DNA of 64,000 nt from Ignavibacteriota bacterium (GCA_963801355.1 CAWDEM010000008.1:1984001-2048000); one strand, 5' to 3'; counted from the stretch's first letter, positions 29,221 to 63,157 are shown. Numbers and translations are program-made. Notes: generated by a model not told the origin, from the sequence alone.

Positions 29221-29237
29221 TCGGCACAGGACTTGCA
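29221..29237 (+). promoter_or_regulatory. Sigma54 (-24/-12) promoter
   Basis: tcGGCACaggacTTGCA: GG-N10-GC with consensus flanks, about 55 nt before the first operon ATG. Confidence 0.8.
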
Positions 29238-29291: not shown

Positions 29292-29540
29292 ATGTTCGAT
29301 CTCGACGACCCCCGCTCATGGACCTACTTCACGAACTGGGTTCTGGTTGCCGTGGCATTCGTTGCCGCTCTGTTCATAGGGTACGGTGTGCTTCGCGAGA
29401 AACGCGCCAGGAAGACATCCCCGGCACATGCGACGGGCGACGCCCATACGCTCTTTCTCCCGGACCTCGGGCTTACGATGGCCGACGGCGGCGAGAAAGT
29501 CACAGATGAGAAGTCAAAGAAAACAGCGAAACCGGCCTGA
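29292..29540 (+). CDS. Small single-TM protein with GLTMADGGE motif
   Basis: GAGGA RBS; TM WVLVAVAFVAALFIGYGVL; motif shared with the two GcvH-like proteins. Confidence 0.75.
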   Translation: MFDLDDPRSWTYFTNWVLVAVAFVAALFIGYGVLREKRARKTSPAHATGDAHTLFLPDLGLTMADGGEKVTDEKSKKTAKPA

Positions 29541-29569
29541 CCTCCGGGAGAGACAACGAGGACACAGCA

Positions 29570-30544
29570 ATGCGATGCCCCTTTCTCCGCGAAGCACAGG
29601 TGAAGTCCTGTCGTGGTTCCGCCTTCCGCAAAATGATCGTCTGTGTGCCCGGTCAGGCGGATGCGGACCGCTGTACATCACCCGACTTTGTGAATTGTCC
29701 GGCTGCGCTGCCGCTCACCGATGCACATGCTCACGATTCACACTGTCCGTTCCTCCAGGAATCGCTGGTGCAGTACTGCGCCGCAGCATCCGTCACGAAG
29801 TACATCCCGTACAGCGAGGCGGAGCTCTCGCATTGCGGGACCGATAGTCACAAGTACTGTGAACTCTTTCTCACGCTTGCACACCCCGAGCGCGCAAGTT
29901 TCTCAACAACCGCTTCAGCCGGAACCGGGGCAGATGATTCTTCACCGGACTTCCTTGTGGAAGGCATCCGCGTGCCGGGGTGGCTCGGGTTTTCCCCCAA
30001 CCACATGTGGATCGATATCGACAGTGATGGACTCGTCCATATCGGCATCGACGCCTTTCTTGCTTCGATGCTTGACTCCATAGACCGCATCACCTTTCTG
30101 ACCACCGAAGGCATCCATCGTCCGACCGTGGTGCTGACCATTCACGGCGTCGATCTGCAGATGGTGTTCCCCCATCCGGTGCGCCTGAAGACTCCCAACC
30201 TGTACATCCGCACGCATCCCTTGACATTGTTGTCGGATCCGTATGCACTGGGATGGCTGTTTGAAGGAACTCTCGTCGGTGATGACCCCGCGACGGCTGC
30301 AGAGACGATGAGACGCGAGCTGCTTTCGGGGAGAGCCGCCGCCGGATGGATCGAATCGGAGATTCACCGGGTGTCACATATGGCTCATGCATTGTCTAAC
30401 GCTCCGGACCTCCAGGGAGAAGTTGCTATGGCCGACGGCGGCACCGTGGAACGGGGATTCATTCGACACTTGAACCGTGATGCCATCCTCCGCGTCTTCA
30501 ACGAGTTCTTTTCTCCGTTTGCAGAATGGAGGGATTTAAAGTGA
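29570..30544 (+). CDS. Cys-rich GcvH-like protein lacking the lipoyl lysine
   Basis: Duplicated CPFL.E..V..C N-domain; H-protein fold motifs HMWI..IGIDAF..SDPY..GWL; C-terminal MADGG. Confidence 0.75.
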   Translation: MRCPFLREAQVKSCRGSAFRKMIVCVPGQADADRCTSPDFVNCPAALPLTDAHAHDSHCPFLQESLVQYCAAASVTKYIPYSEAELSHCGTDSHKYCELFLTLAHPERASFSTTASAGTGADDSSPDFLVEGIRVPGWLGFSPNHMWIDIDSDGLVHIGIDAFLASMLDSIDRITFLTTEGIHRPTVVLTIHGVDLQMVFPHPVRLKTPNLYIRTHPLTLLSDPYALGWLFEGTLVGDDPATAAETMRRELLSGRAAAGWIESEIHRVSHMAHALSNAPDLQGEVAMADGGTVERGFIRHLNRDAILRVFNEFFSPFAEWRDLK

Positions 30545-31128
30545 GTGTGAAGGGTCCAATACTATTTTTGTGCGGAATTCTGGCATCCCTTGCCATTGGA
30601 TGGTTCGCGTTCCCCGCTGCCCTCTACCGGACCGAGGCGCAACCAATGCAATTCAACCATGCCATCCACACGGGCGAACAGAACAGCATGACCTGCGACA
30701 TGTGTCATGAGTTCGCAGAGAACGGCAGCTTCAAGGGCATTCCGGTTATCGCAAAGTGCGCTGAATGCCATTCCGCACCCATCGGTTCGACAGAGTCCGA
30801 GAGGATTCTCGTCGAACAGTACGTGACACCCCAGAGGGAAATCCCGTGGAAGGTCTATTCGCGCCAACCGGACAACGCGTATTTTCCGCACACGGTCCAT
30901 GTGAAAAGCGCAGAGATCACCTGCGACGTGTGCCACGGACCGCATGGTTCCAGCTCTTCGCTCCCCGCGTATCAAGTCAACCGTATCAGCGGGTATAGCA
31001 GGGACATCTGGGGAAGGAACATCTCGGGGATTCCCTCCCAGCCCTGGGAAGGCATGAAGATGGACCGGTGCGTGCGGTGTCATGCCGAGCGCCGGAGAGA
31101 CGACAGCTGCATTGATTGTCACAAGTGA
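30541..31128 (+). CDS. Membrane-anchored pentaheme cytochrome c (QrcA/ActA-like)
   Basis: N-terminal TM; QPMQFNH; CDMCH, CAECH, CDVCH, CVRCH, CIDCH. Confidence 0.9.
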   Translation: MSVKGPILFLCGILASLAIGWFAFPAALYRTEAQPMQFNHAIHTGEQNSMTCDMCHEFAENGSFKGIPVIAKCAECHSAPIGSTESERILVEQYVTPQREIPWKVYSRQPDNAYFPHTVHVKSAEITCDVCHGPHGSSSSLPAYQVNRISGYSRDIWGRNISGIPSQPWEGMKMDRCVRCHAERRRDDSCIDCHK

Positions 31129-31130
31129 AC

Positions 31131-32876
31131 ATGAAGAGATCCATGAAGATTACACGAAGAGAATTGCTGACGTTCGCGGGTGGATCGATCCTCGGCGCCC
31201 TGTTCACGCCCATCCCATGGAAGCTCCTGGACGATAGCTCGATTTGGACGCAGAACTGGTCACTGATCCCCGGTCTTCCCCGTGGCCCGGAGACATATAC
31301 CGCAACCCGATGCGCCATCTGTCCGGGGGGCTGCGCCGTCAGGGCCCGACGTATCAATGGGCAGCCCGTCACGCTTGCCGGCGTTCCCGCAGATCCGCTC
31401 AAGAGCGGAGCGCTCTGTCCCATGGGAATTGCCGGACATCATCTGGCATTCCATCCGCTGCGGCTACGTGATGCCTTCGCGTTCACCGGAAAGAGCCCGG
31501 ACGCAACGCTGGTTCCGATCGGCCTCGATGAAGTCGTATCGAAGGTCTCCCGGACCATTCGGGATCTATCGGCGGCGTCGATGCCAGGTGCCATCGCGAT
31601 TCTTGATCAACGGCCTGGAAGGGCGGTCTCCGGGCTCTACCGGGAGTTCATCGGGACGTGCCCGCAGGGAACCTACATCGTGGCCCCGGGATCTGAAGAA
31701 CCCACGCTGGCCGCTCTTCAAAGACTGTGCAATTTCAACGAGGCATTGCCCGGCTATGACCTCGAGAATACTCGGGTCATCCTGAGTTTTGGATCCGACC
31801 TGCTCGACGGGTGGAGCTCTCCGGGCCGCTTGACCGGTCTCATGCAGAACAGAAATCAGAACGGTCTGCAACTCATCCAGGCGGAAGGCGTCAAATCCCG
31901 CACCGCGCACCAGGCAAACACCTGGCTCCCCGTGATCCCGGGTACAGAGGGAACCCTTGCTCTCTCAATCGGCAACGTGCTTATCCGTGACGGTCTGCAT
32001 TCCCGGGACGTCGAGAAGGGGATCACTGATTTCCAGACATACAAGAAGCTTGTTGCCGGATTCCCGCCCGAGGCCGCTGCGGCTGCAACCGGCATCTCCG
32101 CTCAGGCAATCACAGCGACAGCGCACGCGCTCGCTTCCGGTCCATCAGTGGTCATGGCAGGGTGCAATCCTGCGGGCGGTCCGTTCGACCGGGCCACCGA
32201 GGTTGCGATTGCGGGACTCAACATACTCATCGGGAGCGTTGGCCGGAAAGGTGGCATCACTCTTTATGCCCGCACCCCTTCGGCACACGCATCAACCGTG
32301 CCGGCGGTCGCCCTGGCGGATGTCCCGGACCATTCCATCCGGCTGCTCTTGATCGACGGCGCCGAATCGGGAAATGTGTTCCCCGCGTCATTGCTCAAAC
32401 GGAAACTTACATCCGACGGCGGAACAGTAGTGCTCATGTCTCCGTATCTCGCTCCGCGATCAGGCAGTGCCGACTATTTGTTGCCGTCAGCTGCTGCATA
32501 TGAATCGACGGAAGAACTTTCCACCCCAACCGGTGCAACCCGATCTTCCTTTGCTCTCTCCCTCCCGCTGTTCAAGCAGTCCGAGAAGACTGTTGATCCC
32601 GTGGCATTCCTGGCGAAGCTCGCTGAGGCCGCCGGTCTTCCTCTGCCCGGAGCGACATCCTCGGAAGCCTGCCTCAAGCAGCGTGCCCACGATATCTGGG
32701 TTTCCAAACGAGGATCATTGACTACGGCGGCGGATTCTGCAGTGACCCCTGTACAGGGAATGTCGGGAGAAGAAGATTTGTGGAAGGGATTGTCGGAGGG
32801 AGAATGCTGGATTGACAGCGAAGATCAGCACCCGTCAGTCATTCCGAAGTTCGATCCTCGGTTCGATGACGCCTGA
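31131..32876 (+). CDS. Molybdopterin oxidoreductase-like subunit (QrcB/ActB-like), N-terminal part; apparent frameshift near 32850
   Basis: Tat motif ITRRELL; CAICPGGC...LCPMG Fe-S site; WLPVIPGTEG, ADYLLP. Ends before the molybdopterin dinucleotide-binding domain. Confidence 0.8.
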   Translation: MKRSMKITRRELLTFAGGSILGALFTPIPWKLLDDSSIWTQNWSLIPGLPRGPETYTATRCAICPGGCAVRARRINGQPVTLAGVPADPLKSGALCPMGIAGHHLAFHPLRLRDAFAFTGKSPDATLVPIGLDEVVSKVSRTIRDLSAASMPGAIAILDQRPGRAVSGLYREFIGTCPQGTYIVAPGSEEPTLAALQRLCNFNEALPGYDLENTRVILSFGSDLLDGWSSPGRLTGLMQNRNQNGLQLIQAEGVKSRTAHQANTWLPVIPGTEGTLALSIGNVLIRDGLHSRDVEKGITDFQTYKKLVAGFPPEAAAAATGISAQAITATAHALASGPSVVMAGCNPAGGPFDRATEVAIAGLNILIGSVGRKGGITLYARTPSAHASTVPAVALADVPDHSIRLLLIDGAESGNVFPASLLKRKLTSDGGTVVLMSPYLAPRSGSADYLLPSAAAYESTEELSTPTGATRSSFALSLPLFKQSEKTVDPVAFLAKLAEAAGLPLPGATSSEACLKQRAHDIWVSKRGSLTTAADSAVTPVQGMSGEEDLWKGLSEGECWIDSEDQHPSVIPKFDPRFDDA

Positions 32877-33294
32877 GCACTTCCAGGCACCGTCTGCATC
32901 GGTGAAACCGGCCAAGGGCACATTGAAGCTGATGCCTTTTGGCTGGAGGAACGCGACGATGACGGCCTCTGTGGCGCCGGTGCTCAGCAAGATCTTCCAG
33001 GAATCGCATCTCCGGAGTCTTGGCGGAAGAGTACACCTCAACCCCTCGACCATTGCCGCGAACGCGCTTGCGGACGGGGCCCGCGTGAAAATCAGCACAC
33101 AGTCCGGAACCGTGACAGCCGATGTCGTTGCCGATCCGGCGATCATTCCCGGTGTCATCCACGCCATCGTCGGTCCATCTCCCAACAACACCGCGCACAC
33201 GGATCAACCCGAGGCGGAGGGACTGCTCGGTCTGTGCGTTGTGGGTGCGGACGGTTCATGGAGAATCACTGAAGCAACGATTGCGAGAGCGTAA
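32851..33294 (+). pseudogene. C-terminal molybdopterin dinucleotide-binding domain of the QrcB-like subunit, in a shifted frame
   Basis: VHLNP..LADGARVKIST.SG....V..DPAIIPGVI; no convincing RBS; overlaps the upstream ORF end. Confidence 0.6.
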
Positions 33295-33298
33295 GAGA

Positions 33299-34048
33299 AT
33301 GGAACAGAGCGCAGAATCCAAATCCCGGTATGGCATGGTCATCGACCTTGACCGCTGCACAGGGTGCGGCGCGTGCATGGTCGCATGTGCGGTGGAGAAT
33401 AACGTTGCTCCGGCGGAACAGAAGGCGACGGATCGCACGGGCGACACCTGGTTGCGCGTCTACACGGTAACCAATGGCGAAGGATTCCCGTCGCTTGACA
33501 CGGTATTCATCCCGATGGGCTGCCAGCAATGTGATAATCATACACCGTGCGTCTCCGTCTGCCCGCAAAACGCCGTGGAACTGGACCACGCGACGGGCAT
33601 CGTTGCGCAGATCCCCCAGCGGTGTCTTGGATGCCGCTACTGCATGACGGCATGCCCGTACCATGCGCGATATTTCAACTGGTGGGATCCCCGGTGGCCG
33701 GAAGGCACAGAAACACTGCTCAATCCGGACGTTGCACCCCGCATGCGCGGTGTTGTCGAAAAGTGCAATTTTTGCCATGGGCGCCTTCATACGGCAAGGA
33801 CCAAAGCAGCAGCAGAAGGAAAAAAAGGAATCGAACCCGGCGACTACATCCCCGCCTGCGTTGAAAGCTGTCCCTCACAGGCAATCGTGTTCGGGGACCT
33901 TGCGGATGAGTCGAGCCCCGTTGCGCAGCTGAGCCGGAGCAGTGATGCATTTCAATTTCTTCCCAGACTCGGCACCGCGCCGAAGGTGTTCTATCACTCA
34001 GCGAGGGAATGGGTCCGGAACATGGCCGCACGGGTACCGACGGCGTAA
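33299..34048 (+). CDS. 4x[4Fe-4S] electron-transfer subunit (QrcC/NrfC-like)
   Basis: CTGCGACMVAC, CQQC...PCVSVCP, CLGCRYCMTACP, KCNFC...PACVESCP. Confidence 0.93.
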   Translation: MEQSAESKSRYGMVIDLDRCTGCGACMVACAVENNVAPAEQKATDRTGDTWLRVYTVTNGEGFPSLDTVFIPMGCQQCDNHTPCVSVCPQNAVELDHATGIVAQIPQRCLGCRYCMTACPYHARYFNWWDPRWPEGTETLLNPDVAPRMRGVVEKCNFCHGRLHTARTKAAAEGKKGIEPGDYIPACVESCPSQAIVFGDLADESSPVAQLSRSSDAFQFLPRLGTAPKVFYHSAREWVRNMAARVPTA

Positions 34049-34120
34049 ACACTGAACCCCATCCATAAGGATGGGAATGACAACCCCGCCGTTCACGACG
34101 GGATACAGAGGAACAGGATA

Positions 34121-35347
34121 ATGGATCAGCAGTTCATACCCAGAGGATTGCAGCGGACGTCGTTCACACGGTTTCTGACATGGATTCTCCCGTGGATTCT
34201 CCTGCTGGGCATCGGTGTCTACGCAATGTATCTTTGCCTTGCCGACGGCCTGTATCACACCAACATGGATAACAGGTTTGCCTTCGGGCTCTGGATCTAT
34301 CTTGATCTCACCATCATCGCTCTTGGTGCGGGCGCCTTCTTCACCGGTTTTCTCCTGTATATCCTGAGGAGGGACGAGCTCAAGGCAGTCATCAACAGCG
34401 CCGTGGTTCTCGGACTCATCTGCTACAGCGGCGCCGTCCTCGTGTTGATGGTGGATGTCGGACAACCCCTCCGCGCATGGTTCACCTTCTGGCATCCCAA
34501 CACACACTCGATGCTTGCGGAAGTCACGTTCTGCCTCACCTGCTACCTGACGGTCCTCATCATCGAATATCTCCCTGTGGTGTTGAAGAACCGGAAGCTC
34601 AGACAAATCCCGCGGTTCCTCGTGTTCGAGTTCGAACTGCACAAAGTCATGCCGGTCTTTGCGGGTGTCGGGACGTTCCTGTCCTTCTTCCACCAGGGCT
34701 CCCTGGGCGGGCTGTACGGGGTCCTCGTCGGCCGTCCGTTTTCGTTCCGCGAGGTCCTGGGGATATGGCCGTCCACCTTCTACCTCTTCATCATTTCCGC
34801 GGCGGCTGCCGGCCCGAGTTTCGTTCTGGTGACCACGTGGCTTGTACAGAAACTTTCGGGGAAAAAGCTGGTAAAACCCGAAGTCATGAAATTCCTCGGC
34901 AAGGTGTCTGGGTGGATGCTTATCGTCTATGTGCTGCTGAAGGCTATCGACACACTGTATTGGATCAATCATACCGTGCCGGCAGAGGGTGGGCTTGCGT
35001 ACGCGTTCTATACTTCGCAGGGATTCGGCACGTGGATCCTCTTTGCAGAGATCGTTTTTCTGGGTCTCATCCCCGCCCTGTTGTTGCTGAGCAGGCGGAT
35101 GCGGGAAAAGCCTGCCGTGCTGGTGGGCGCGGCGTTTCTTGTCTGCTGTGGTATCGTGATGAACCGTTTCGTGATGACCATCCAGACTCTTGCGCTGCCG
35201 ACATTGCCCTTTGACCTGATGATGTCCTATGTCCCGAGCTGGCAGGAAGTTGCGACATTTCTCGCTGTTGTCGCCTATGGTGTTCTGGTATATTCTCTTT
35301 CGTTTCGGTATACGACTCTCTTTCCTCAGGAAAGAGACATCCGCTAA
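34121..35347 (+). CDS. NrfD/PsrC-family membrane subunit (QrcD-like)
   Basis: About 10 TMs; GLWIYLD, DVGQPLR, HQGSLGG, NRFVM, YVPSWQE. Confidence 0.92.
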   Translation: MDQQFIPRGLQRTSFTRFLTWILPWILLLGIGVYAMYLCLADGLYHTNMDNRFAFGLWIYLDLTIIALGAGAFFTGFLLYILRRDELKAVINSAVVLGLICYSGAVLVLMVDVGQPLRAWFTFWHPNTHSMLAEVTFCLTCYLTVLIIEYLPVVLKNRKLRQIPRFLVFEFELHKVMPVFAGVGTFLSFFHQGSLGGLYGVLVGRPFSFREVLGIWPSTFYLFIISAAAAGPSFVLVTTWLVQKLSGKKLVKPEVMKFLGKVSGWMLIVYVLLKAIDTLYWINHTVPAEGGLAYAFYTSQGFGTWILFAEIVFLGLIPALLLLSRRMREKPAVLVGAAFLVCCGIVMNRFVMTIQTLALPTLPFDLMMSYVPSWQEVATFLAVVAYGVLVYSLSFRYTTLFPQERDIR

Positions 35348-35365
35348 TGACAGTGGAGGTGCATT

Positions 35366-36199
35366 GTGTTCCCGTTCATCTATGAGTTTCAGTGGACCCC
35401 GTACCATATGGTATTTCTGGGCCTTTTCTTTTCCGTGGTGGTTGTGATCCTCTCCGCCGTGTCGCTAGCGGGGCTGCGCGCATACAAAACACTCCAGCGC
35501 CGGCGTCATGAGGCCGTTCAGTGGGAGGCGGAATTCAAAGACCTGCCTGTTGTAGCGCGCACATGCCGGCATCAGATCGCGGGCGAAGTCGAGCACAGGA
35601 CGTGCAATAACGAATTCGATTGCCGTACCTGTGAGGCGCATAAAGCATTTCTGGCCAAACACACACCCGGGCTGGCTCCAGCCGGCACACAGGAGTCTGT
35701 CTTTGGCTTCTCCATGCCCCTTGACCGGTACTACCACCGGGGGCACACGTGGGTGACGTATGATGGCGACGGGATCTATACCATCGGGTTGGACGATTTC
35801 GGCAACCGGATGATTGGTGCTCCGGAGTCCGTTGAACTCCCCGGCGTTGGAACTGCGTTGAGTGCGAACGGCAGCGGATGGCTTATCAAAAAGGGACGCG
35901 CGGCACTTCGCATCCTCTCGCCCATCGACGGCATGGTGGTGGAGACCGGGTCCACAAAGGATGGCTGGTACCTCAAAGTGCGCGGTGGGGAACCTGAAGT
36001 GGAAACCCGTCACCTCCTGCGCGGAGAGGAAATCAAGCCCTGGATCCTGAGGGAGTTGGAGCGGCTGCAGGGTGCCGTTTCACCGGCAGGCGTGGGTATG
36101 ACTCTTGCCGACGGTGGCGAGCTCGTTTCTGATATGTCGAAACACGCCCCGCATGTCGACTGGGACGGTGTCTGGGGAGAGATGTTCCTGCAGGCGTAA
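35366..36199 (+). CDS. Membrane-anchored Cys-motif GcvH-like protein lacking the lipoyl lysine
   Basis: GGAGG RBS with GTG start; TM; CRH..GEV..RTC.NEFDCRTC; YYHRGHTWV..IGLDDF..SPIDG..GWY; TLADGGE. Confidence 0.8.
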   Translation: MFPFIYEFQWTPYHMVFLGLFFSVVVVILSAVSLAGLRAYKTLQRRRHEAVQWEAEFKDLPVVARTCRHQIAGEVEHRTCNNEFDCRTCEAHKAFLAKHTPGLAPAGTQESVFGFSMPLDRYYHRGHTWVTYDGDGIYTIGLDDFGNRMIGAPESVELPGVGTALSANGSGWLIKKGRAALRILSPIDGMVVETGSTKDGWYLKVRGGEPEVETRHLLRGEEIKPWILRELERLQGAVSPAGVGMTLADGGELVSDMSKHAPHVDWDGVWGEMFLQA

Positions 36200-36205
36200 A
36201 GAGGG

Positions 36206-37567
36206 TTATTCCCTCTGCATGTTGTACTTTTTCAACCGGTCATACAGGGTTGAGCGGTCAATGCCAAGAATGGACGCCGCCTCCTTGATGTTCCCGTGCG
36301 TGCGCTCCACCGTGGCGGTGATGATATCACGCTCCGCTTCCTCCAGCGTGATATTCGCCGGCACGTTCCACGCCGCTTTGCCCTGATCCCGCCCCGCAAC
36401 AAGAAACTCCACATCCTCATCGGCAAGCATCGTGGTCTTGCAGGTGACAATCGCCCGCTCAATGGTGTTTTCCAGTTCACGGACGTTGCCCGGCCATTCG
36501 TGATCCATCAGGATGCGTAACGCTCCCTCGGAGATTCCGCTTATGTTCTTCCCGAGTTCGTGTGAGATCCGCTCGACGAAGTTCCGGGCAAGGAGCGGGA
36601 TGTCTTCCCTGCGTTCCCGCAGCGGGGGTATCTGGATGCTGATCACGTTCAACCGATAGAAGAGATCATCGCGGAATTTTCCTTCGCGTACCGCGCGATC
36701 AAGGTCCACGTTTGTCGCGGCAATCACGCGGACATCCACTTCAATCTCTTCAGTCCCGCCGACCCGGTAGAATTTCCGCTCCTGCAATACGCGCAGGAGG
36801 TCCATCTGCAGTTTCGACGAAATGTCACCGATCTCGTCCAGAAAAAGCGTCCCGCCATCCGCCATCTCAAATTTCCCTTTGCGCTGTGAGGCTGCGCCGG
36901 TGAACGAGCCCTTTTCATGGCCGAAGAGTTCGGATTCAAGGAGCGTTTCGGGAAGAGCGGCGCATGAGACGGTGATGAACGGTTTCGCCGCCCGGTCACC
37001 CGAGAAATGGACGGCCCGGGCGATCAACTCCTTGCCCGTGCCGCTCTCCCCCTGGATGAGTACCGTGCTGCGCAATCCGGCGACATCCCTCACCAGATCA
37101 AAAATCTTTCCCATTTTCGGGCTTTTGCTGAGGATGTCATGAAAGCTGTACTGTTTCGTGAGTTTCTTCCGGAGAATGGAATTCTCCCTCTGCAGGTTCT
37201 TGACCCTGATAATCCTGTTGACGAGAAGGGATATTTCCTCGGGGTTGCAGGGTTTGACGATGTATTCCTGTGCCCCTTCCTTCATCGCTGTGATCGCGGT
37301 GTCCACCGTTGCGTAGGCAGTCACAATGATGATGGATGCCTCCGGATGGATCTTCCGGATTTCCATCATTGTCTCGATGCCATCGATGCCACCGGGCATC
37401 TTCAAATCAATGAAATAGATCGCATAGTCGAGGTGCGCGGCTTTGTCGATGGCCTCCCTGCCCGACACTGCGGTATCGACGTTGTAACCGTCTTCCCGGA
37501 GCCATGCCGCAAGCGACTCGCGCATCACTTCTTCGTCGTCCACCACCATGATATGCCAGTGATTCAT
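36206..37567 (-). CDS. Sigma54-dependent response regulator (NtrC/AtoC family)
   Basis: REC domain; GESGTGKE, ESELFGHEKGSFTGA, FLDEIG, FR.DLFYRL, WPGNVREL; Fis-type HTH. Confidence 0.96.
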   Translation of the reverse strand: MNHWHIMVVDDEEVMRESLAAWLREDGYNVDTAVSGREAIDKAAHLDYAIYFIDLKMPGGIDGIETMMEIRKIHPEASIIIVTAYATVDTAITAMKEGAQEYIVKPCNPEEISLLVNRIIRVKNLQRENSILRKKLTKQYSFHDILSKSPKMGKIFDLVRDVAGLRSTVLIQGESGTGKELIARAVHFSGDRAAKPFITVSCAALPETLLESELFGHEKGSFTGAASQRKGKFEMADGGTLFLDEIGDISSKLQMDLLRVLQERKFYRVGGTEEIEVDVRVIAATNVDLDRAVREGKFRDDLFYRLNVISIQIPPLRERREDIPLLARNFVERISHELGKNISGISEGALRILMDHEWPGNVRELENTIERAIVTCKTTMLADEDVEFLVAGRDQGKAAWNVPANITLEEAERDIITATVERTHGNIKEAASILGIDRSTLYDRLKKYNMQRE

Positions 37568-38103
37568 ACAGTCCTCGTCTTTTCCTCAACAAGCGTGATG
37601 CAATTACTGCACAATTCCGTGCCTTTGGCGTCCACCTGTCGGACATTGTTCGAGAGTGACATCGGACAGCCGGTGTCTGCGCAATGTGTCAGGCCGACCG
37701 TATGCCCGACTTCGTGCACTGCCTCCTTCACGGCCCGTGCGGCGGTGAGGGAGGGATTGGGAGGCAGACCATAGAATTCCTGTTGCAGACGAGCCACTGA
37801 GACGACCGCGGCCGGAGCACCCAGTTGGGCTTGCCCGAGCACGAAGCTGAGCATAGGAATGAACAGGTCCCTGCTGGAAATCGCCAGGAGGCTCACCGCG
37901 TCAGGCGGCACACGGGCCACAAGTTGACGCAGGATGTGCGCGGAACTGAACTGTCTGCGCTGCGGGTCAAAGGCGTAGTCAGGTCCCGGCAACGGGGACA
38001 GGCGCTTCACCTCATGACCGTACACGCGCTGGAGTCCATGTTCTATTGCGGTCAGGATGTCTTCCTCAATCCCGCCCAGTGCAACGATATACATCGATTT
38101 CAC
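37564..38103 (-). CDS. Archaemetzincin-family Zn metalloprotease
   Basis: HEVGHTVGLTHC....CPM.....VD.K...LC..C; LSFVLGQA. Confidence 0.9.
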   Translation of the reverse strand: MKSMYIVALGGIEEDILTAIEHGLQRVYGHEVKRLSPLPGPDYAFDPQRRQFSSAHILRQLVARVPPDAVSLLAISSRDLFIPMLSFVLGQAQLGAPAAVVSVARLQQEFYGLPPNPSLTAARAVKEAVHEVGHTVGLTHCADTGCPMSLSNNVRQVDAKGTELCSNCITLVEEKTRTV

Positions 38104-39743
38104 AAGACCCGTTCCGGCGCGAAAGGTACTGCAGCCGGTGCAGCCTGGACGGGTTCGACGGGCAGCGTTACCTTGAACACGGTGCCTTCGCCCACGATGC
38201 TGCGCATCTCGATGTCACCCCCGTGTGCCTGAACAATGCCGTAGACCACAGCAAGCCCGAGCCCCACCCCTTTGCCTTCCCCTTTCGTCGTGAAGAAAGG
38301 AGTGTACAGTTTCGCGATATTCTCCGGGGCAATCCCGTCGCCGGTATCGCTGACCTCGAGGACCAGTGAATTATCGACCGGCTCGTGAGAAGTCCGGACC
38401 GTCACGCGTGCGTCGGCTTTGTTCTGGGTCGCTTCGGCACCGTTCATCACCAGGTTGATCAGCACCTGCTGCATCTGGGAGGCATCACACGTAACGAGCG
38501 GAAGTTGCTCGTCCAGCTGAAGATCCATCGCGACGCCCATCAATTTCAACTTGTGCCCTATCAGATTGACGGTGGTCCGGACGACGGCGTTGAAGTCCGT
38601 ATTCGCACGCTGATGCGGTTTCGATCGCCGGGAAAACGCAAGCAGGTCCTGCACGATCCTGCCTACCCTGCTGGTCTCGTTGACTACCTGCGTCAGGTAC
38701 TTTTTGAACTCCTCGATCCTCTGCGGCGGTATACCATCCTCTTTCACCATGCGCTGCATCAGCATGGAAAGGTTCAGCACCCCCGAGAGCGGGTTGTTGA
38801 TTTCGTGTGCAACACTCGCGGAGAGCTGCCCCAGGGAAGCAAGCCGGTCACTGCGCAACAGCTTCTGATGAGCAACCTTCAGCTCTTCGGTGCGTTGATC
38901 CACTTTCGTTTCGAGTCCCTGGGTAAATTCGTTCAACTTGTTGATCGCCTCGTTCAGTCTCACGCGCATGGTGTCAAAAGTCTGTGCGAGTTCTCCGAGT
39001 TCCTCCGAGGAATCGATATCGACCGGCTTGTCGAGGTTCATCTTGCTTACCGCCCGGATTCCTCCTATGAGCTTCTGAATTGGCGCTGTAACATACCTTC
39101 GTGTAAAGAAGATCGTAAAGACCGATATCAGGAGAACCAGTATGGCGGAAACAATAAGCACCCGGTCCTGGACCGTGCTGATCTCCGCATCGACGGTGCG
39201 AAGGTCAAGGGCGACGTCGACAACACCCAGGACATTCAATGCCGCCGGATGGGCGTGACAGTCTGCATTGCTGCAAGCGGGTTCGTTGTACACCGGGGTC
39301 ACGATCTCGAGGGCGCGCGTGCCGTCCGGGGAACGGAAGACGCGCGTACGCGCGGGCATATCCACCCGCACGAGAGGACTCCCTGATGCGTGGCAAATGG
39401 CGCACGCCTCCGATTGCTTGTCCACTCTGGCGGAATCGCCGGGAGCAGTGGAGAACATCACCCGCCCCTCTTTGTTGAAGATGCGGATGCGGTTGATCCC
39501 CTGCTTGGTGGCGATTGTCTGCATGATATCGTACGCCCGCTCCCGTGTGTCGGCAAGCATGGCGTGCCAGGTCGCACTCACAATGCTGCCCGAAAGCTGG
39601 TCGGCACCTGTGATCATTGCATCCAGAAGTTGACGCTCCTGGGTTTTCATATGGTAAATCCCTGACGCCACGCCGACGAGCATGACAATCACTGTCAGGG
39701 GAATTATGAGCTGTAGAGAGAGCTTCCGCGGATAAAGTTTCAT
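38100..39743 (-). CDS. Sensor histidine kinase with heme-c-type periplasmic domain and HAMP
   Basis: CAICH and CSNADCH between two TMs; HAMP; VAHEINNPL, NLVMNG, PFFTTK, GLGL. Confidence 0.92.
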   Translation of the reverse strand: MKLYPRKLSLQLIIPLTVIVMLVGVASGIYHMKTQERQLLDAMITGADQLSGSIVSATWHAMLADTRERAYDIMQTIATKQGINRIRIFNKEGRVMFSTAPGDSARVDKQSEACAICHASGSPLVRVDMPARTRVFRSPDGTRALEIVTPVYNEPACSNADCHAHPAALNVLGVVDVALDLRTVDAEISTVQDRVLIVSAILVLLISVFTIFFTRRYVTAPIQKLIGGIRAVSKMNLDKPVDIDSSEELGELAQTFDTMRVRLNEAINKLNEFTQGLETKVDQRTEELKVAHQKLLRSDRLASLGQLSASVAHEINNPLSGVLNLSMLMQRMVKEDGIPPQRIEEFKKYLTQVVNETSRVGRIVQDLLAFSRRSKPHQRANTDFNAVVRTTVNLIGHKLKLMGVAMDLQLDEQLPLVTCDASQMQQVLINLVMNGAEATQNKADARVTVRTSHEPVDNSLVLEVSDTGDGIAPENIAKLYTPFFTTKGEGKGVGLGLAVVYGIVQAHGGDIEMRSIVGEGTVFKVTLPVEPVQAAPAAVPFAPERVL

Positions 39744-39964: not shown

Positions 39965-40384
39965 TTACTTCTGCTTCTGTTCTTCCAACTTCTGCTTTTG
40001 CTCTTCCAACTTCTCGCCTTTCTTCTCCAACTTCTGCTGCATCATTTCTCCCTTTTTCTCCAACTTCTCACCCTTCTTTTCGATCATTTCACCCTTCTTT
40101 TCCATTTTATGGCCCTTCATCTCCATCTTCTCTCCCTTCTTCTCCATCATCTCACCCTTCTTCGGATGATGTTTCTTTACTTTCTCCGCATGCTTCTGAA
40201 TCTTTTCGCCTTTCTTCTGGAGCATCTCACCCTTGTGTCCCGCCTTCTCCCCCGCCTTTTCCATCTGCTCTCCCTTCTTCTCCATCTGCTCCATCTTCTT
40301 CTCGACCTTTTTCTCCTGGGCGAACAAAGTCATCTGGGCCCCGACGAAGGCCAATGCGAGCAACACTATCCCGAGTTTCTTCAT
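39965..40384 (-). CDS. Exported low-complexity heptad-repeat (EKKGEKM) protein
   Basis: AAGGAG RBS; signal peptide MKKLGIVLLALA..LFA; about 14 heptads. Confidence 0.75.
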   Translation of the reverse strand: MKKLGIVLLALAFVGAQMTLFAQEKKVEKKMEQMEKKGEQMEKAGEKAGHKGEMLQKKGEKIQKHAEKVKKHHPKKGEMMEKKGEKMEMKGHKMEKKGEMIEKKGEKLEKKGEMMQQKLEKKGEKLEEQKQKLEEQKQK

Positions 40385-40410
40385 AGCGACAACTCCTTTA
40401 TGGTGGTCTG

Positions 40411-40788
40411 TCAATTCTCCTTAGCGCCCTCTTCAATCCACTTCGCCAGCAGTTTCAGTTGATCCTGCGGAAGAGCTACGACTGTGGAAGTGTCCGGAGG
40501 CATCCGGTAGTGGGGTTGATCGGTCGCGCACACAATGTAGAGCCAGCTTTTCGCCGGCTCCTGGGCAACGATGATTGGCTTCTTGCCAGGATACGTCCGG
40601 GCGTTCATCACATCCTCGTACGATTGCAGCATGACCTTGCCACGGGTGAGTTCCGCGTTGTGGCATTGTACGCACTGTGTATTGAGAATCGGCTGGATCT
40701 GGTCCCGATAGCTCACGGGCGGCTGGACCGTCTTCTGGCTGCATCCGGCGAGAAAGGAAGCAACGAGCACTGTTGCAAGCAAGCGCAT
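40411..40788 (-). CDS. Monoheme cytochrome c lipoprotein (planctomycete cytochrome C-like)
   Basis: Lipobox LAGC; IQPIL..QCVQCH; RMPP; WIEEGA. Confidence 0.85.
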   Translation of the reverse strand: MRLLATVLVASFLAGCSQKTVQPPVSYRDQIQPILNTQCVQCHNAELTRGKVMLQSYEDVMNARTYPGKKPIIVAQEPAKSWLYIVCATDQPHYRMPPDTSTVVALPQDQLKLLAKWIEEGAKEN

Positions 40789-44726: not shown

Positions 44727-47700
44727 CTACCGAAACACCACTTCAAGAAGCACTTCATTCCACCCTTCTCCCAATTCAGCCACGATGTTTCCGTCAGAGG
44801 GCAGCCCTCCCACACGACCATTGAGAGTGAGCCGGGTAATATCTCGGTTGCTTACAAGTGGCAACACTGTTCTCCCCACACCAGCGATCTTCATGGTGAG
44901 ATGGCCGGGTCCAGATTCCTGAGGCGTGATACTCGTGCCCGGGGTTGTGAACACCAGCGCAACGCCATCTCTGACAAGTACCTGCCTCAGGCTCCCTTCG
45001 GTGACCTCGAGCGGTACCTTCAAATCTTCGACCTCGAGGAGGACCCGCTTCGTATTGCCCGCCGATGTCCAATCCGTGTTCAAAAGAACGATCCTCTTCC
45101 ATCCCCCCGGACAATTGTAGACATGCCAATCGACATCGGTTGACTCACCGGTGATGCGCATTTCTGTGCGGAGAGTCGATGTGAGCTTCTGCAGCATGAG
45201 TGGGCGGAACGCGTCCAGCGATGCTGCTCCCCAGTACTCTCCGACTGTGAGCATCCACACCTTCCCCGCACCGATCCTATTCTCAACGAGGACGGGATGT
45301 CCGTCTTCATCAGCGGCCAGCACATGGGCGGTCGTTGTGCTCAACCTGAGACCGGGAACATGTTCCGCGGCACATGAGGAGCCATCAGCCCAGATGATTT
45401 GACGCATTTCCCCGCCGACATCTTGTATCCTGACTCCGCCGAGCGCAGTCAGATCCCCGCCCGCGTACCATTGGAAATCCTTCTTCTCCTTCAGGAAGTC
45501 GCGCGTCACATGCTTCGTACATTGCGCTGCACTTAATACAAGGTGCCCGCCATTCCGAACGTATGCGAGCAGCTTCGCATAAATCTCATCCGTCATCGTG
45601 TTCCACCCCGGGAGCACCAGAAGCCGATACTTCGAGAGTTTTTCCGGGGTTGCATCGATGGGAATCAGGTCAACCTGGCCATGCGGCGAGCCCCCGAAGA
45701 ACTGGCGGATCGATGTGGGATCTTGCAGCACGGGATAGAGCCACACTCCAGGCATGAACGCTCCCAACAACTCCCAGCCGCGTTCCGGTGTATCAAACTC
45801 CCAACTCGGCTTCTCCGGCCCGATCATCCCCCAGAACTTGGTTCTTGGAACATCAGGGTCCGACTGTAGTCCGCCGACGAGACAGTCATAGTTGCCTTGC
45901 AGAAATCCGATTCGCACATCCTCCTTGCCCAGATCGATGCTCGATGCGTAATGGTACAACTCCTGCATTTGTTTGCGTCGATTGAAGGTAAACGGATCAG
46001 AAAACGCGCGCGGGGCATCGTGGACGGCGTACAGGGCAAACTCTTCGTCATAGATCAATCTGGCACCATACAGCCACGCCTGCCAGAGCAGGATGAAGTT
46101 GCGCCGCTCAGTGGCATTGTCTGCCGGCACGCGTGGGATGTGGTTGGCATTGTGCACACCCCACAGGCTCTTATCGAATGCATACACCGCCCCGCGTTGA
46201 CTCGCGAACATGAGTGTCGAATGACCGGTCGGGGGTTCACTAAACACCAGCTGGACGCCGGCTTTATAGTCCAGGTGCGTAATCGGCAAGGCCTGACCGA
46301 GGATCTGAATCCCGCCGACCCGCCTCAGATATGCCTCTTCGCACTCGGGAAGCGTTCTGTCAGCCCGGCGCGCAATCGGCTCGGGGTCTCCCCAGCCGTA
46401 GATCAAATTGCTGCGTTCATGTCCATGGATACCCAGATAACTCTTGCCCAGGCGCGCGCGCAGGATCGCATCAGCAGAACGCGTGGGATCAGTAGACTCG
46501 ACGAGGCCGGCCTTGATGCCGTAGCGCACCATCATGTCGCACCAGCGATGATAGTCCTTCAACGTGTCCACAGTGTGCGCTTCCTCTATACGGAAGAGAA
46601 TGTAGTTCCCGGCCTCCTCCTCCCCCATCATCGTCAGAACACTGTCCACTTCGCCATTCTGCGGCGTGAGCGTGTTCTCATCATAGCCAATCCAGAAGGT
46701 AGGTTGCGGAGGAAGGGGTGGAAGCTGTCGCAGATTATCCTTGAGCGAGGGTGGAGGATCATTCACAAAGACGCGGTGCACAAGGACCACATAGCGGGCG
46801 CTACGATTCAGCAGCTGGATCCTGTTCTTCATCTCACGTAGGGATTTTCTAGGAACCGACACATACAGGTCTTGCATCTTCTGCACCATCCGGAATTTCG
46901 CAAAGAAGTGCCGCAAATCAGAACGGCAATCATTGATCGACACATGAAGGTCTATCCAATCGTCCATCACCTCAAGCCCACCCGTGGAATCCTTGGCCGC
47001 CATGAGTTGAAGATGGACGATGCAACTGTCACCCGCCAGTCGGCTGAAGTTCAGGATATCGAATCGGGTCGTGGATTGCCCTGATGCCGGGACTACCGCA
47101 CAATAGGTGCTCAGAAAATGCGCCTTGCCTCCCGAGAAGTCATCGGGCATGACAATGGCTCCTGCCTGATTCTTCCGGCGCAATCCTGCGAGATGCGATT
47201 TCCGCGACACGCGGATTCTCGGATCCTGCCCGAGGAAAACCACAATAGGCTGGCCTGAATAGTAACCCCCGCAATGGAATTCAAGAATTTCCTTCTCGAG
47301 CAGCCCGCCCAGTTGAAACGAAACAGTCCTGGACGTCGTGGCAATCGTCACATGCGTCGAGGAATCGCCTCTCACGCTGAAGCGTATACCTTCAGTCCCG
47401 TTTCCCGAGCCGGGAACAATTTCGCTTTTCCATTCAGGTGTCGTCAACCGGTGGACATATTCCCGGGCGCATCCGCTCCATCCCCTCGCCCAGTCCGTTC
47501 GCGCATAGAGCAGCTTGTCGATCCAGATCAATTCGCCACGTTCAACGCGAAGGCTTCCGTCCCAGTGAAAGGCTTCGTTGCTGACCGGCGAATACGAGAA
47601 TGATTTCCCGAATGTGACCGAGACTACGTAGTCCTTCTGGCTCTCGCCCCTGACCATGGGATCTCCCCGGCTCTCCGCGGAGGGATGTGTTGCGGAGTGC

Positions 47701-49772: not shown

Positions 49773-50102
49773 GATTGCGGGTTCGACATTGAGGAGTTGA
49801 TGGGTGTGCTGGAAAGATACCCTCAAGGAGGAGCAAACGCAAGATGTAGCACAGGGGTTGCCAGCGTGGAAAGATCCTGATCGAGCGGCGCAAAAAAGAA
49901 GCGCCCGGACATCGCTCTGCCCGGGCCGATTGAAAGACACAGGTACCAACTTCCATACAATCGTGGATTGGAGGCTGCGTTGACTACGACGCAAAATACT
50001 TAGAGAAGACCTCATCGCATTGCCGGGCAAGGGAGAAGTCCTTCTCGGTAAGCCCTCCTCCATCATGCGTCGTGAGTCTGGCCTCCTATGTATCCTTTTA
50101 TG

Positions 50103-59335: not shown

Positions 59336-59408
59336 GGCGTATTTCCTCAAACGGTTCGCTTGTAGTGAATGAACTTCACTACTATATACTTTCTGGCTTA
59401 CCTGCCAT

Positions 59409-63081: not shown

Positions 63082-63157
63082 TGGAGCTGGCGGGCGGATT
63101 TGAACCGTCGACCTGCTGATTACGAATCAGCTGCTCTACCAGCTGAGCTACGCCAGC
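63082..63157 (-). tRNA. tRNA-Thr(CGT)
   Basis: GCTGGCGTAGCTCAGCTGGTAGAGCAGCTGATTCGTAATCAGCAGGTCGACGGTTCAAATCCGCCCGCCAGCTCCA; 76 nt with encoded CCA. Confidence 0.97.

Follow-up and report, generated by a model that had tools for sequence, protein, structure and literature searches.

Through Qrc, electrons from the periplasm reach the quinone pool in sulfate respiration. The complex also serves as the model for energy conservation by NrfD-type modules, and to our knowledge its known subunits are all membrane-embedded or periplasm-facing. Alternative complex III (ActABCDEF) is a related modular complex that combines a pentaheme subunit, a molybdopterin-like/iron-sulfur module and NrfD-type membrane subunits, and in published structures it also contains small single-helix accessory subunits such as ActD. 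In the Desulfobacterota, Qrc is encoded by four genes, qrcABCD (DVU0692-0695 in Nitratidesulfovibrio vulgaris), which specify a multiheme QrcA, a molybdopterin-like QrcB with a Tat signal, a four-cluster QrcC and an NrfD-type QrcD. In the sections of PMC6303296 drawn on here, the classical complex is purified and reconstituted as four subunits, is electrogenic by itself, acts as a cytochrome c3:menaquinone oxidoreductase and has a QrcB described as free of a Mo/W-pterin cofactor. A plasmid with qrcABCD alone gave recombinant QrcABCD in a deletion strain, according to the part of PMC13059093 used here.

Here we analyse a 64-kb stretch of DNA from an Ignavibacteriota bacterium (the window), in which the same four genes occur in the same order. 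In comparison with QrcABCD as described in the literature, the operon is framed by three extra genes, which are conserved among loci from Ignavibacteriota, Bacteroidota and Acidobacteriota MAGs. The three partner proteins encoded by these genes are previously undescribed. As the four-subunit Qrc is electrogenic and a qrcABCD plasmid is sufficient, core catalysis does not require the extra proteins.

Results

Organization of the locus

The qrc operon (29292-36199, + strand) comprises seven tightly packed genes, for a micro-protein, H-fold protein 1, QrcA, QrcB, QrcC, QrcD and H-fold protein 2, which overlap or are separated by gaps of 4-72 nt, as expected for a single transcript. Facing it is an operon on the other strand (36206-39743) for a histidine kinase, an archaemetzincin and an NtrC-type regulator. 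An earlier note on this DNA had described ten genes on the two sides, and each lies where it had been placed. The note had also stated that gcvP, gcvT, gcvL and a lipoate ligase are absent from the window, in agreement with our NCBIfam scan, in which these models had no match among the 47 window ORFs.

Features of the qrc locus and of the facing regulator operon (positions within the window)
Feature	Position	Strand	Description
Sigma-54 type -24/-12 promoter element	29222-29237	+	CGGCACAGGACTTGCA
Micro-protein	29292-29540	+	82 aa
H-fold protein 1	29570-30544	+	324 aa, soluble
QrcA	30526-31128	+	membrane-anchored pentaheme cytochrome c; NF041781
QrcB N-terminal part	31116-32876	+	586 aa; frame stops early; NF041783
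QrcB C-terminal part	32812-33294	+	160 aa; Molydop_binding domain, PF01568
QrcC	33299-34048	+	four-cluster iron-sulfur subunit; NF041782
QrcD	34121-35347	+	NrfD-type integral membrane quinone-reactive subunit; NF041784
H-fold protein 2	35366-36199	+	277 aa; Pfam GCV_H
NtrC-type sigma-54-dependent response regulator	36206-37567	-	Response_reg, Sigma54_activat, HTH_8
Archaemetzincin-family zinc metalloprotease	37564-38103	-	NF033823, Peptidase_M54
Sensor histidine kinase	38100-39743	-	periplasmic CxxCH/CX4CH domain, HAMP, HisKA, HATPase (Pfam)

The core complex by sequence is of the Qrc type

Judged by its sequences, the core complex is a genuine Qrc-type complex and not an alternative complex III. 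Both QrcA (208.9 bits, cut-off 180) and QrcD (580.7 bits over the full length, cut-off 570) pass their NCBIfam equivalog cut-offs. QrcC (350 bits, cut-off 400; model positions 1-235 of 239 covered) and QrcB (255 bits, cut-off 440; positions 1-522 of 695) fall below theirs, in which this clade differs from classical QrcABCD, yet the Qrc models are by far their best matches, and the QrcB score is lowered because the gene is split by a frame break. The earlier note had spoken of a 'Qrc/ACIII-like complex'; the first half of this description holds, and the second gives way to the better scores of the Qrc models. In alternative complex III, ActB is fused, ActC and ActF are both NrfD-type subunits and ActE is a monoheme subunit, whereas here the B and C parts are encoded separately, a single NrfD-type gene is present, and the operon contains neither a monoheme ActE nor a further cytochrome gene.

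The order qrcA-qrcB-qrcC-qrcD within one operon is kept in related loci. QrcA carries five CxxCH motifs in the window copy and in 54 of the 60 orthologues read, compared with the six hemes given for D. vulgaris QrcA in Table 1 of PMC8076601. The N-terminal part of QrcB, matched by Pfam Molybdop_Fe4S4 and Molybdopterin, has a twin-arginine signal, a CxxCxxxC...C motif and a molybdopterin-oxidoreductase-like body; the twin-arginine is found in 64 of 66 orthologues and the Cys motif, whose retention is a further difference from D. vulgaris QrcABCD, in 65. The frame break lies near 32810-32876; the C-terminal part, shifted by +1 from the frame of the N-terminal part, aligns with QrcB model positions 557-651 and matches PF01568 with E=8e-7. 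Across the loci, qrcB runs as a single ORF up to qrcC in 59 of 67 and is interrupted in 8, and in the closest relative (L001) QrcB is one ORF of 722 aa. Given the frame break, the window copy of qrcB may be inactive or mis-assembled. QrcC, matched by several Fer4 families of Pfam, has no signal sequence of its own.

QrcD has 587 relatives in species genomes, the best 80 of which (68-88% identical) define the 80 related loci compared here, Desulfobacterota qrc neighbourhoods not being among them. The MAGs that carry these loci are labelled Ignavibacteriota, Bacteroidota and Acidobacteriota, in contrast to the Desulfobacterota that host classical Qrc. In a quick tree, a long branch with a support of 96 separates this clade from P0243, a representative of classical-type QrcD (51% identity, 618 bits against the QrcD model). 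Several of the carrier MAGs have fen, bog, palsa or peat-soil isolate names.

Three conserved accessory proteins share an ADGG loop

The co-occurrence of the GcvH-like genes with the complex, on which the earlier note had made its proposal depend, is borne out by synteny: the H-fold and micro-protein genes accompany this Qrc clade almost without exception. The gene for H-fold protein 2 lies directly 3' of qrcD in all 75 evaluable loci, that for H-fold protein 1 is upstream of qrc in 60 of 63, and a small ADGG-bearing ORF directly precedes H-fold gene 1 in 59 of 62. No further conserved gene families were found around the qrc operon, and a search for a fused QrcD/H-fold protein found none.

Both H-fold proteins have the barrel-sandwich H-protein fold of the glycine cleavage H protein, LbpA and GcvH-L, and in Foldseek they match the E. 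coli, Thermus, M. tuberculosis and bovine H-proteins (E from 2e-8 to 3e-8, target-normalised TM-score 0.7-0.85). H-fold protein 1 (477 homologues) consists of two N-terminal four-Cys modules, the GcvH fold, a helix and then a MADGG loop; among 101 sequences, seven of the Cys are invariant, as are D289, G290 and G291, and the eighth (C3) is present in at least 90%. It matches the GcvH profile weakly (E=1.3e-3), and its predicted structure nevertheless has the GcvH fold (E=3e-8 to GcvH structures, target-normalised TM-score up to 0.85), with a pLDDT above 90 for the H-fold part of the AF2 model and low confidence (40-66) for the Cys region. H-fold protein 2 (1425 homologues) matches Pfam GCV_H with E=1.7e-11 and GcvH structures with E=2e-8 (AF2 model pLDDT 86.8), and is built from an N-out transmembrane helix, a cytoplasmic CX12CX5CX2C + His motif, the GcvH fold, a long helix and a LADGGE loop. 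Its residues P3, W10, F17, L18, F21, C67, H69, C80, C86, C89, H92 and A248-G251 are invariant in 101 sequences. The two proteins are paralogous (hhalign probability 97.7%, E=1.5e-12) over 154 columns, from the H-fold through the next helix to the ADGG loop.

The micro-protein, which has no match in Pfam or NCBIfam, has one transmembrane helix in N-out orientation, followed by a cytoplasmic tail that carries the motif LGLTMADGGE. G60, T62 and M63 do not vary among 59 aligned sequences; within the transmembrane segment the same is true of L18, with W10 and N15 conserved in 58 of 59 ORFs. Two of the three accessory proteins, the micro-protein and H-fold protein 2, thus have a conserved single transmembrane helix, and invariant residues in both helices are unusual for a mere membrane anchor, which supports membership of a membrane complex. 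An invariant ADGG loop is common to all three proteins; it has low confidence in both H-fold AF2 models, as expected for a docking motif. According to the positive-inside rule, the Cys-rich parts and H-folds of the accessory proteins should be cytoplasmic, consistent with where the earlier note had put the H-fold proteins.

A sigma-54 promoter and a linked regulator set

The sigma-54 element CGGCACAGGACTTGCA ends 55 nt 5' of the first start codon of the qrc operon and is the sole match with at most one mismatch in the 64-kb window. Among 62 related loci, 12 have such an element at the corresponding position with at most one mismatch and 33 with at most two, compared with 0.003 and 0.026 matches expected per locus; the remaining 29 have none at this latter threshold. 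No sigma-70-like match was found on the + strand of the intergenic region before the operon.

Orthologues of the kinase and the NtrC-type regulator (at least 60% identity) lie next to the operon in 25 of the 35 loci with full coverage: in 21 of these they are downstream in convergent orientation, and in 4 upstream in divergent orientation. In the other 10, no regulator genes were found within 10 kb. These two arrangements, together with the sigma-54 promoter 5' of the operon, uphold the linkage of the regulators to the operon that the earlier note had claimed. The regulator consists of a receiver, an AAA+ domain (Sigma54_activat, E=2.6e-71) and a Fis-type HTH (HTH_8), and its translated loop reads GSFTGA, the consensus of the sigma-54 AAA+ loop being GAFTGA. 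The periplasmic part of the kinase contains CAICH and CSNADCH; both Cys motifs occur in 28 of 34 orthologues and CX4CH alone in 6. This part weakly resembles the heme-c PAS-type domain of a Geobacter chemoreceptor (3b42, E=0.04), the CxxCH region of which aligns with the heme motif region of the kinase; however, the motif at the aligned site is CX4CH with a second CxxCH upstream, and the output is a histidine kinase rather than a chemoreceptor. It also matches Pfam Mcp40H-20_sensor weakly (E=5.5e-4, below the cut-off).

The archaemetzincin gene overlaps both of its neighbours by 4 nt. Its product scores 154.6 bits against a cut-off of 145, matches Peptidase_M54 and has the zinc site HExxHxxGxxH (HEVGHTVGLTH here), a motif present in 33 of 34 orthologues. 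The protease had been expected to co-occur with the complex, which is the case in part: of the 25 adjacent sets, 21 have it between the kinase and the regulator and 4 lack it.

Discussion

We give an even chance to the overall reading that this locus encodes a QrcABCD variant with three cytoplasm-facing accessory subunits, expressed through sigma-54 and NtrC. The core would work as in sulfate reducers, with electrons passing from a periplasmic cytochrome to the pentaheme QrcA, through the Tat-exported QrcB/QrcC iron-sulfur module and on to menaquinone in QrcD, a route suggested by family membership. To this core, three dedicated proteins would be added as stoichiometric subunits on the cytoplasmic side. 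Their conserved single transmembrane helices may hold the micro-protein and H-fold protein 2 at QrcD, and the soluble H-fold protein 1 would be recruited to these two. The Cys4 and Cys8 modules would bind metal, either zinc or iron-sulfur, and the shared flexible ADGG loop could serve as a docking motif. Taken together, the micro-protein and H-fold protein 1 resemble H-fold protein 2 split in two, and the two pseudo-symmetric halves of QrcD may accordingly each carry one such module, beside the cytoplasmic proton-entry path. Transcription would start from the sigma-54 promoter with the neighbouring NtrC-type regulator as the probable activator, the kinase would read the periplasmic redox state through a c-type heme, and the archaemetzincin may be an optional cytoplasmic modulator of the kinase/regulator circuit. 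Several observations count against this reading. Classical Qrc works as four subunits, no fused QrcD/H-fold protein was found, the Cys region of H-fold protein 1 is modelled with low confidence, and some loci lack the regulator genes or the sigma-54 element. Further points are the frame break in the window copy of qrcB and the lack of a redox cofactor in QrcD, because of which metal centres in the cytoplasm cannot pass electrons to or from the periplasmic chain.

A somewhat unlikely alternative is that the accessory proteins are assembly or maturation factors, which might hold QrcB/QrcC in the cytoplasm for the Tat translocase or aid cluster insertion, by analogy with the dedicated chaperones of other Tat-exported redox enzymes. 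QrcB has its conserved twin-arginine signal and QrcC none, so the pair must fold and load its clusters in the cytoplasm, where the Cys-rich accessory proteins are also predicted to reside, and chaperone genes often lie in the operon of their client. It also fits such a role that classical Qrc works as four subunits, as described in the sections of PMC6303296 drawn on here. No similarity to TorD/DmsD/NarJ or NapD was found in Pfam or NCBIfam, however, and two of the three proteins are membrane-anchored by helices conserved in sequence. Known Tat proofreading chaperones are soluble. We consider it unlikely that the accessory proteins are instead sensors of redox or quinone-pool state, for example thiol or metal switches, that report on the complex to the kinase/protease/regulator set, with the archaemetzincin cutting at or near the ADGG loop. 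The adjacency of the regulator genes in two arrangements, the conserved Cys/His motifs and the one invariant exposed loop in all three proteins, a possible common recognition site, would all suit this explanation. However, the kinase already seems to have a heme-type periplasmic sensor of its own, no evidence connects the protease with the ADGG motif, and neither the accessory genes nor their ADGG motif differ in the 10 of 35 loci that lack adjacent regulators or in the 4 of 25 sets that lack the protease. As the accessory genes remain with qrc in the regulator-less loci, their primary tie is to the complex and not to signalling, which speaks against the earlier suggestion that the H-fold proteins couple the two.

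That the H-fold genes encode ordinary lipoylated H-proteins or LbpA-type lipoate carriers, beside qrc by chance, is extremely improbable, although many family members are annotated 'glycine cleavage system H lipoate-binding protein'. Lipoate carriers have a lipoyl-Lys, whereas the column of H-fold protein 2 aligned to it holds G, K, N, R or D (R178 in the window), with Lys in 19% and 7% of the sequences in two alignments; two residues ahead of the canonical position, Lys is frequent (87% and 59%). In H-fold protein 1, no hairpin position has Lys in more than 5% of sequences. The earlier note's view that the lipoyl-Lys is missing is thus confirmed by both alignment sets, which have no conserved Lys at the hairpin tip, and from their sequences the two proteins appear unable to carry lipoate. 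They also miss the curated NCBIfam GcvH cut-offs by far, protein 2 with a score of 43.1 (cut-off 115.85) and protein 1 with 18.5 (cut-off 117), and at 277 and 324 aa they are two to two-and-a-half times longer than lipoate carriers, with a transmembrane helix, Cys modules and C-terminal extensions that end in the ADGG tail. Their genes accompany a respiratory complex, whereas those of lipoate carriers lie with gcvPT, sHdr or a sirtuin/macrodomain operon. Neither gcvPTL nor a lipoate ligase gene was found in the window, and the position of H-fold gene 2 beside qrcD in 75 of 75 loci shows that the linkage is not due to chance.

Within our preferred reading of accessory subunits on a Qrc core, we speculate further, in a form that we regard as quite unlikely, that the H-fold paralogues and the micro-protein make up an N-side module on QrcD, the first for a periplasm-facing NrfD-type quinone reductase. 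The metal/thiol centres and ADGG loops of this module might gate or tune proton uptake and thereby affect how much energy the redox loop yields. Cleavage of the shared loop by the archaemetzincin might act as a reset, and the H-protein fold, once that of a lipoyl carrier, would now serve as a regulatory subunit of a respiratory complex. A cofactor-less, lipoyl-like barrel-sandwich domain serves as a structural peripheral subunit on the cytoplasmic face in NqrA of Na+-NQR, an analogy of architecture only; an NqrA chain (8acw_A) was among the weak Foldseek matches, at a non-significant E=0.13.

Acidobacteriota now count among the recognised sulfate reducers of the environment (PMC10564751). The three extra cytoplasm-side proteins in a clade of Acidobacteriota and Ignavibacteriota/Bacteroidota suggest an unstudied layer of assembly, regulation or coupling in Qrc. 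Based on our findings, a conserved micro-protein family is defined, the H-protein fold would gain a role without lipoate, and the locus offers the first genomic context that hints at the function of a bacterial archaemetzincin.

A Qrc-type operon with three dedicated accessory genes

ORF listing and translation of the window place a compact row of seven genes on the forward strand (29292-36199), in which neighbours overlap or lie 4-72 nt apart and in which a micro-protein and two proteins with the fold of the glycine cleavage H-protein (H-fold proteins 1 and 2) flank the four qrc genes; the genes of the regulator set that faces this row overlap by 4 nt from each to the next. In a Pfam/NCBIfam scan, QrcA (208.9 bits, cut-off 180) and QrcD (580.7 bits, cut-off 570) exceed the family thresholds, while QrcC (350 bits, cut-off 400) and QrcB (255 bits, cut-off 440) fall below them. 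Since QrcB and QrcC are encoded by separate genes, only a single NrfD-type subunit is present and ActE is missing, the core complex is, as judged from family scores and gene content, Qrc and not ACIII; of the "Qrc/ACIII-like complex" in the earlier note, the first half stands and the second does not.

Features of the window
Feature	Position	Strand	Length	Description
Sigma-54 pattern match	29222-29237	+		Micro-protein starts 55 nt downstream
Micro-protein		+	82 aa	First gene of the row
H-fold protein 1	29570-30544	+	324 aa	Cys-rich
QrcA		+	200 aa	Cytochrome, five CxxCH motifs
QrcB		+		Tat signal, molybdopterin-oxidoreductase-like
QrcC		+		Ferredoxin-like, four clusters
QrcD		+	408 aa	NrfD-type membrane protein
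H-fold protein 2	35366-36199	+	277 aa	One transmembrane helix
Regulator set	36206-39743	-		Sigma-54-dependent response regulator, archaemetzincin (179 aa), sensor kinase; converges on the operon
Two genes upstream of the kinase	39965-40788	-	125 aa; 149 aa	Cytochrome c lipoprotein with one heme (PSCyt1-like); repeat protein rich in Lys and Glu, N-terminus signal-like
Long ORF	44727-50066	-	1779 aa	No NCBIfam match; sole Pfam match a beta-galactosidase trimerisation-like domain near the C-terminus
TolB-like protein	55580-59350	-	1256 aa	TPR and many PD40/WD40 beta-propeller repeats
tRNA gene	63085-63157	-		Single tRNA gene; the window's only Rfam match at gathering score

The qrcB gene is broken in the window: a stop at 32876 closes the first frame after 586 codons, and the Molydop_binding part is read in the +1 frame as far as 33294, with the frame change falling within 32810-32880. 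The closest related locus (L001) carries an intact qrcB, a single ORF of 722 aa, and its alignment with the window reveals a one-base length difference near 32840, inside a divergent stretch. Of 67 related loci, 59 have qrcB as one unbroken ORF; in the other 8 the gene is interrupted, and several of these come from assemblies with 'MFD' isolate names. The break in the window may be either an assembly error or a pseudogene. Of 66 QrcB orthologues, 65 keep CxxCxxxC...C (31290-31420 in the window), a motif that molybdopterin enzymes typically carry in their iron-sulfur domain; QrcB of this clade may hold a cluster or a pterin cofactor.

The accessory genes are inherited together with the Qrc core

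A scan with the QrcD alignment, using one genome per species, recovered 587 relatives; the neighbourhood counts given here cover the best 80 of these, which share 68-88% identity and all belong to this clade, the classical qrc loci of Desulfobacterota lying outside this set. All 80 are from metagenome-assembled genomes (MAGs), titled as Ignavibacteriota (12), Bacteroidota (17) and Acidobacteriota (50), with one unlabelled; the Acidobacteriota include Bryobacterales, Solibacteraceae (among them the peat MAG SbA4 and a Candidatus Sulfopaludibacter), Terriglobia, Holophagales, Thermoanaerobaculia and Vicinamibacteria. By tblastn, protein 2 lies directly 3' of qrcD in 75/75 loci with enough downstream sequence and protein 1 lies upstream in 60/63 (absent from L015, L029 and L036), bearing out the proposal that the GcvH-like genes co-occur with the complex. 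The micro-protein was detected by tblastn in 50/59 loci, and direct ORF inspection placed a small ORF bearing an ADGG motif immediately before protein 1 in 59/62 (absent from L032, L038 and L055). Clustering of all flanking ORFs yielded no further conserved family beyond the seven operon and three regulator genes, the other recurrent clusters being antisense ORFs over the operon.

A quick maximum-likelihood analysis of QrcD sets the 58 clade members apart, by a long branch (SH-aLRT 96), from P0243, a representative of the classical type (51% identity; QrcD model score 618 bits). Within the clade, members labelled as different phyla are partly intermingled. Two pairs of loci, L024/L057 and L028/L064, are highly supported sisters in which an Acidobacteriota label meets a Bacteroidota or Ignavibacteriota label, which points to either transfer of the operon between phyla or mislabelled bins.

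A Pfam scan for fusions found no GCV_H domain in 14 long or extended QrcD relatives. One candidate, P0354, runs from a QrcD C-terminus into a protein 2 N-terminus, but its remainder is Arg/Pro-rich and out of frame, and we take it for a gene-calling artefact. Looking for relatives of protein 2 with extra length, as a fusion would have, gave none, which is weak evidence. A further QrcD relative, P0349, joins an NrfD-type membrane protein to a C-terminal cyclic-nucleotide-binding domain, a separate case of a cytoplasmic regulatory domain on this quinone-reactive subunit family.

H-protein folds without a conserved lipoyl-lysine

Protein 2 matches the first 74 of the 122 positions of the Pfam GCV_H model (E=1.7e-11) and protein 1 gives a marginal GcvH match in NCBIfam (E=1.3e-3). 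Both belong to conserved families of constant length (1425 and 477 members, respectively, at E<=1e-3), many of which are annotated at source as 'glycine cleavage system H lipoate-binding protein'. Structures were modelled from 101-sequence alignments built with the first 100 of 115 (protein 2) and 114 (protein 1) full-length matches among the 120 listed per family. The protein 2 model is confident (pLDDT 86.8), with a transmembrane helix (12-44), a Cys motif surrounded by short helices, a beta-rich core (109-206), a long helix (220-238) and a low-confidence loop at the ADGG motif; in the protein 1 model the core (128-276) is confident and the Cys-rich N-terminus, for which an Atlas look-alike search gave no usable match, is poorly modelled. 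The same search returned for protein 2 its own family only, in clusters from Acidobacteriota and Ignavibacteriota. Against solved H-proteins, Foldseek matched the cores of protein 2 (E=2e-8) and protein 1 (E=3e-8) with target-normalised TM-scores of up to 0.79 and 0.85. Profile comparison shows the two proteins to be paralogues, with a match that spans the fold, the helix after it and the ADGG loop (probability 97.7%, E=1.5e-12, 154 columns).

Profile alignment pairs the lipoyl-lysine of the Escherichia coli H-protein (ESVKA) with a column that varies in protein 2, R178 in the window, where Lys occurs in 19/101 database homologues and 4/58 locus-derived orthologues; a Lys two residues earlier is common and not universal (87% and 59%, mostly Arg otherwise). 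In the corresponding hairpin of protein 1, no column exceeds 5% Lys and a Gly-x-Asp at the tip is nearly invariant. Because the one column varies and the other hairpin is poor in Lys, these alignments indicate that lipoylation cannot be a conserved function of the H-fold proteins, and individual members could differ. The description of these partners as GcvH-like and lipoyl-less is thus upheld, the fold by Foldseek and the lack of a conserved lipoyl-lysine by the alignments.

The three accessory proteins have an invariant loop in common, which reads LG-x-TMADGG-E in the micro-protein, MADGG in protein 1 and LADGGE in protein 2. Its D-G-G triplet is invariant in all alignments of the accessory proteins, with the proviso that the micro-protein set was selected on ADGG and trimmed with a pattern that included W10 and N15 (58/59 ORFs matched); G60, T62 and M63 of the micro-protein are invariant and were not imposed by selection. 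Seven Cys of protein 1 are invariant and an eighth, C3, is present in at least 90% of sequences, together forming two modules, C-X10-C-X20-C-X7-C and C-X10-C-X18-C-X7-C. In protein 2, C67, H69, C80, C86, C89 and H92 are invariant, as are P3, W10, F17, L18 and F21 in or before its transmembrane helix. The micro-protein (anchor and ADGG tail) and protein 1 (Cys modules, H-fold and ADGG) taken together contain the same parts as protein 2 alone. Under the positive-inside rule, the basic stretches C-terminal to the two transmembrane helices (REKRARK and RAYKTLQRRRHE) and the acidic or neutral N-termini predict an N-out, C-in topology for the micro-protein and protein 2, which would place the Cys modules, H-folds and ADGG loops in the cytoplasm.

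A conserved promoter and a frequently adjacent regulator set

The operon is preceded by a conserved sigma-54 promoter. A search of the 64-kb window for TGGCAC-N5-TTGCW with up to 1 mismatch gave a single match, which by itself carries no weight since chance alone would give about two sites over the 64 kb; what matters is its position. No sigma-70-like site was found on the forward strand in the region of this match. In the equivalent 270-nt zone of related loci, a sigma-54 site is present in 12/62 with at most 1 mismatch (0.003 expected per locus) and in 33/62 with at most 2 (0.026 expected per locus), and these 33 are made up of 20 of the 37 loci that have the regulators next to the operon and 13 of the 25 that do not. 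A search of the sequence upstream of the promoter revealed no palindrome in common that might bind an activator: the best combination of half-site and spacer occurred in 6/59 regions, against 3 or fewer in shuffles, an excess probably due to close kinship.

A kinase with heme motifs, an archaemetzincin and an NtrC-type regulator are frequent neighbours of the operon. In the 35 loci whose flanks are each covered for a full 10 kb, kinase and regulator (at least 50% and at least 60% identity) occur in 25, with the archaemetzincin between them in 21 and missing in 4, and all three genes are absent from 10. The set is convergent and downstream, as in the window, in 21/25 and divergent upstream of the micro-protein in 4/25, and these two arrangements argue for functional linkage and not simply inherited order. 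A divergent upstream set was seen in L005, L007, L008, L014, L016, L026 and L074, most other loci having it placed like the window. The periplasmic part of the kinase carries CxxCH and CX4CH in 28 of 34 orthologues and CX4CH alone in 6, and its CX4CH region aligns weakly (E=0.04) with the heme site of 3b42, a sensor domain from Geobacter; the archaemetzincin motif HExxHxxGxxH is present in 33/34 orthologues. Of the two genes upstream of the kinase, only the cytochrome recurs, and only in L001.

Possible role of the accessory proteins

Qrc has been treated as a four-gene, four-subunit unit of Desulfobacterota in the relevant passages of PMC13059093, PMC6303296, PMC4215793 and PMC8076601, and the genome set described in the last of these confines QrcD to Deltaproteobacteria. 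In PMC10564751, qrcABCD is attributed to the MAG of an acidobacterial sulfate reducer and reported to be transcribed under anoxic conditions, and thus the Qrc core in these phyla is partly known; the relevant passages make no mention of H-protein-like neighbours. Our searches found no literature linking Qrc with glycine cleavage, one unrelated medical paper aside, and the papers found to name both Qrc and Ignavibacteria have other subjects. Within the literature searched, the accessory set appears to be undescribed.

We give moderate credence to the view that the accessory proteins belong to the complex as subunits, facing the cytoplasm and anchored at QrcD, because of their strict gene linkage and the sequence-conserved transmembrane helices, because flexible shared loops would suit docking and because ACIII, a relative of Qrc, has single-helix accessory subunits. 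That they instead serve as assembly or export factors for the QrcBC module seems unlikely to us, and a function as signalling relays somewhat less likely still. Since QrcD has no cofactor, metal centres in the cytoplasm cannot take part in electron transfer on the periplasmic side; this, together with passages of two studies in which four-subunit classical QrcABCD is both active and electrogenic (PMC6303296; PMC13059093), suggests that the roles of the accessory proteins are likely structural or regulatory, and not catalytic. They could, for instance, cover the cytoplasmic proton-entry path described for QrcD.
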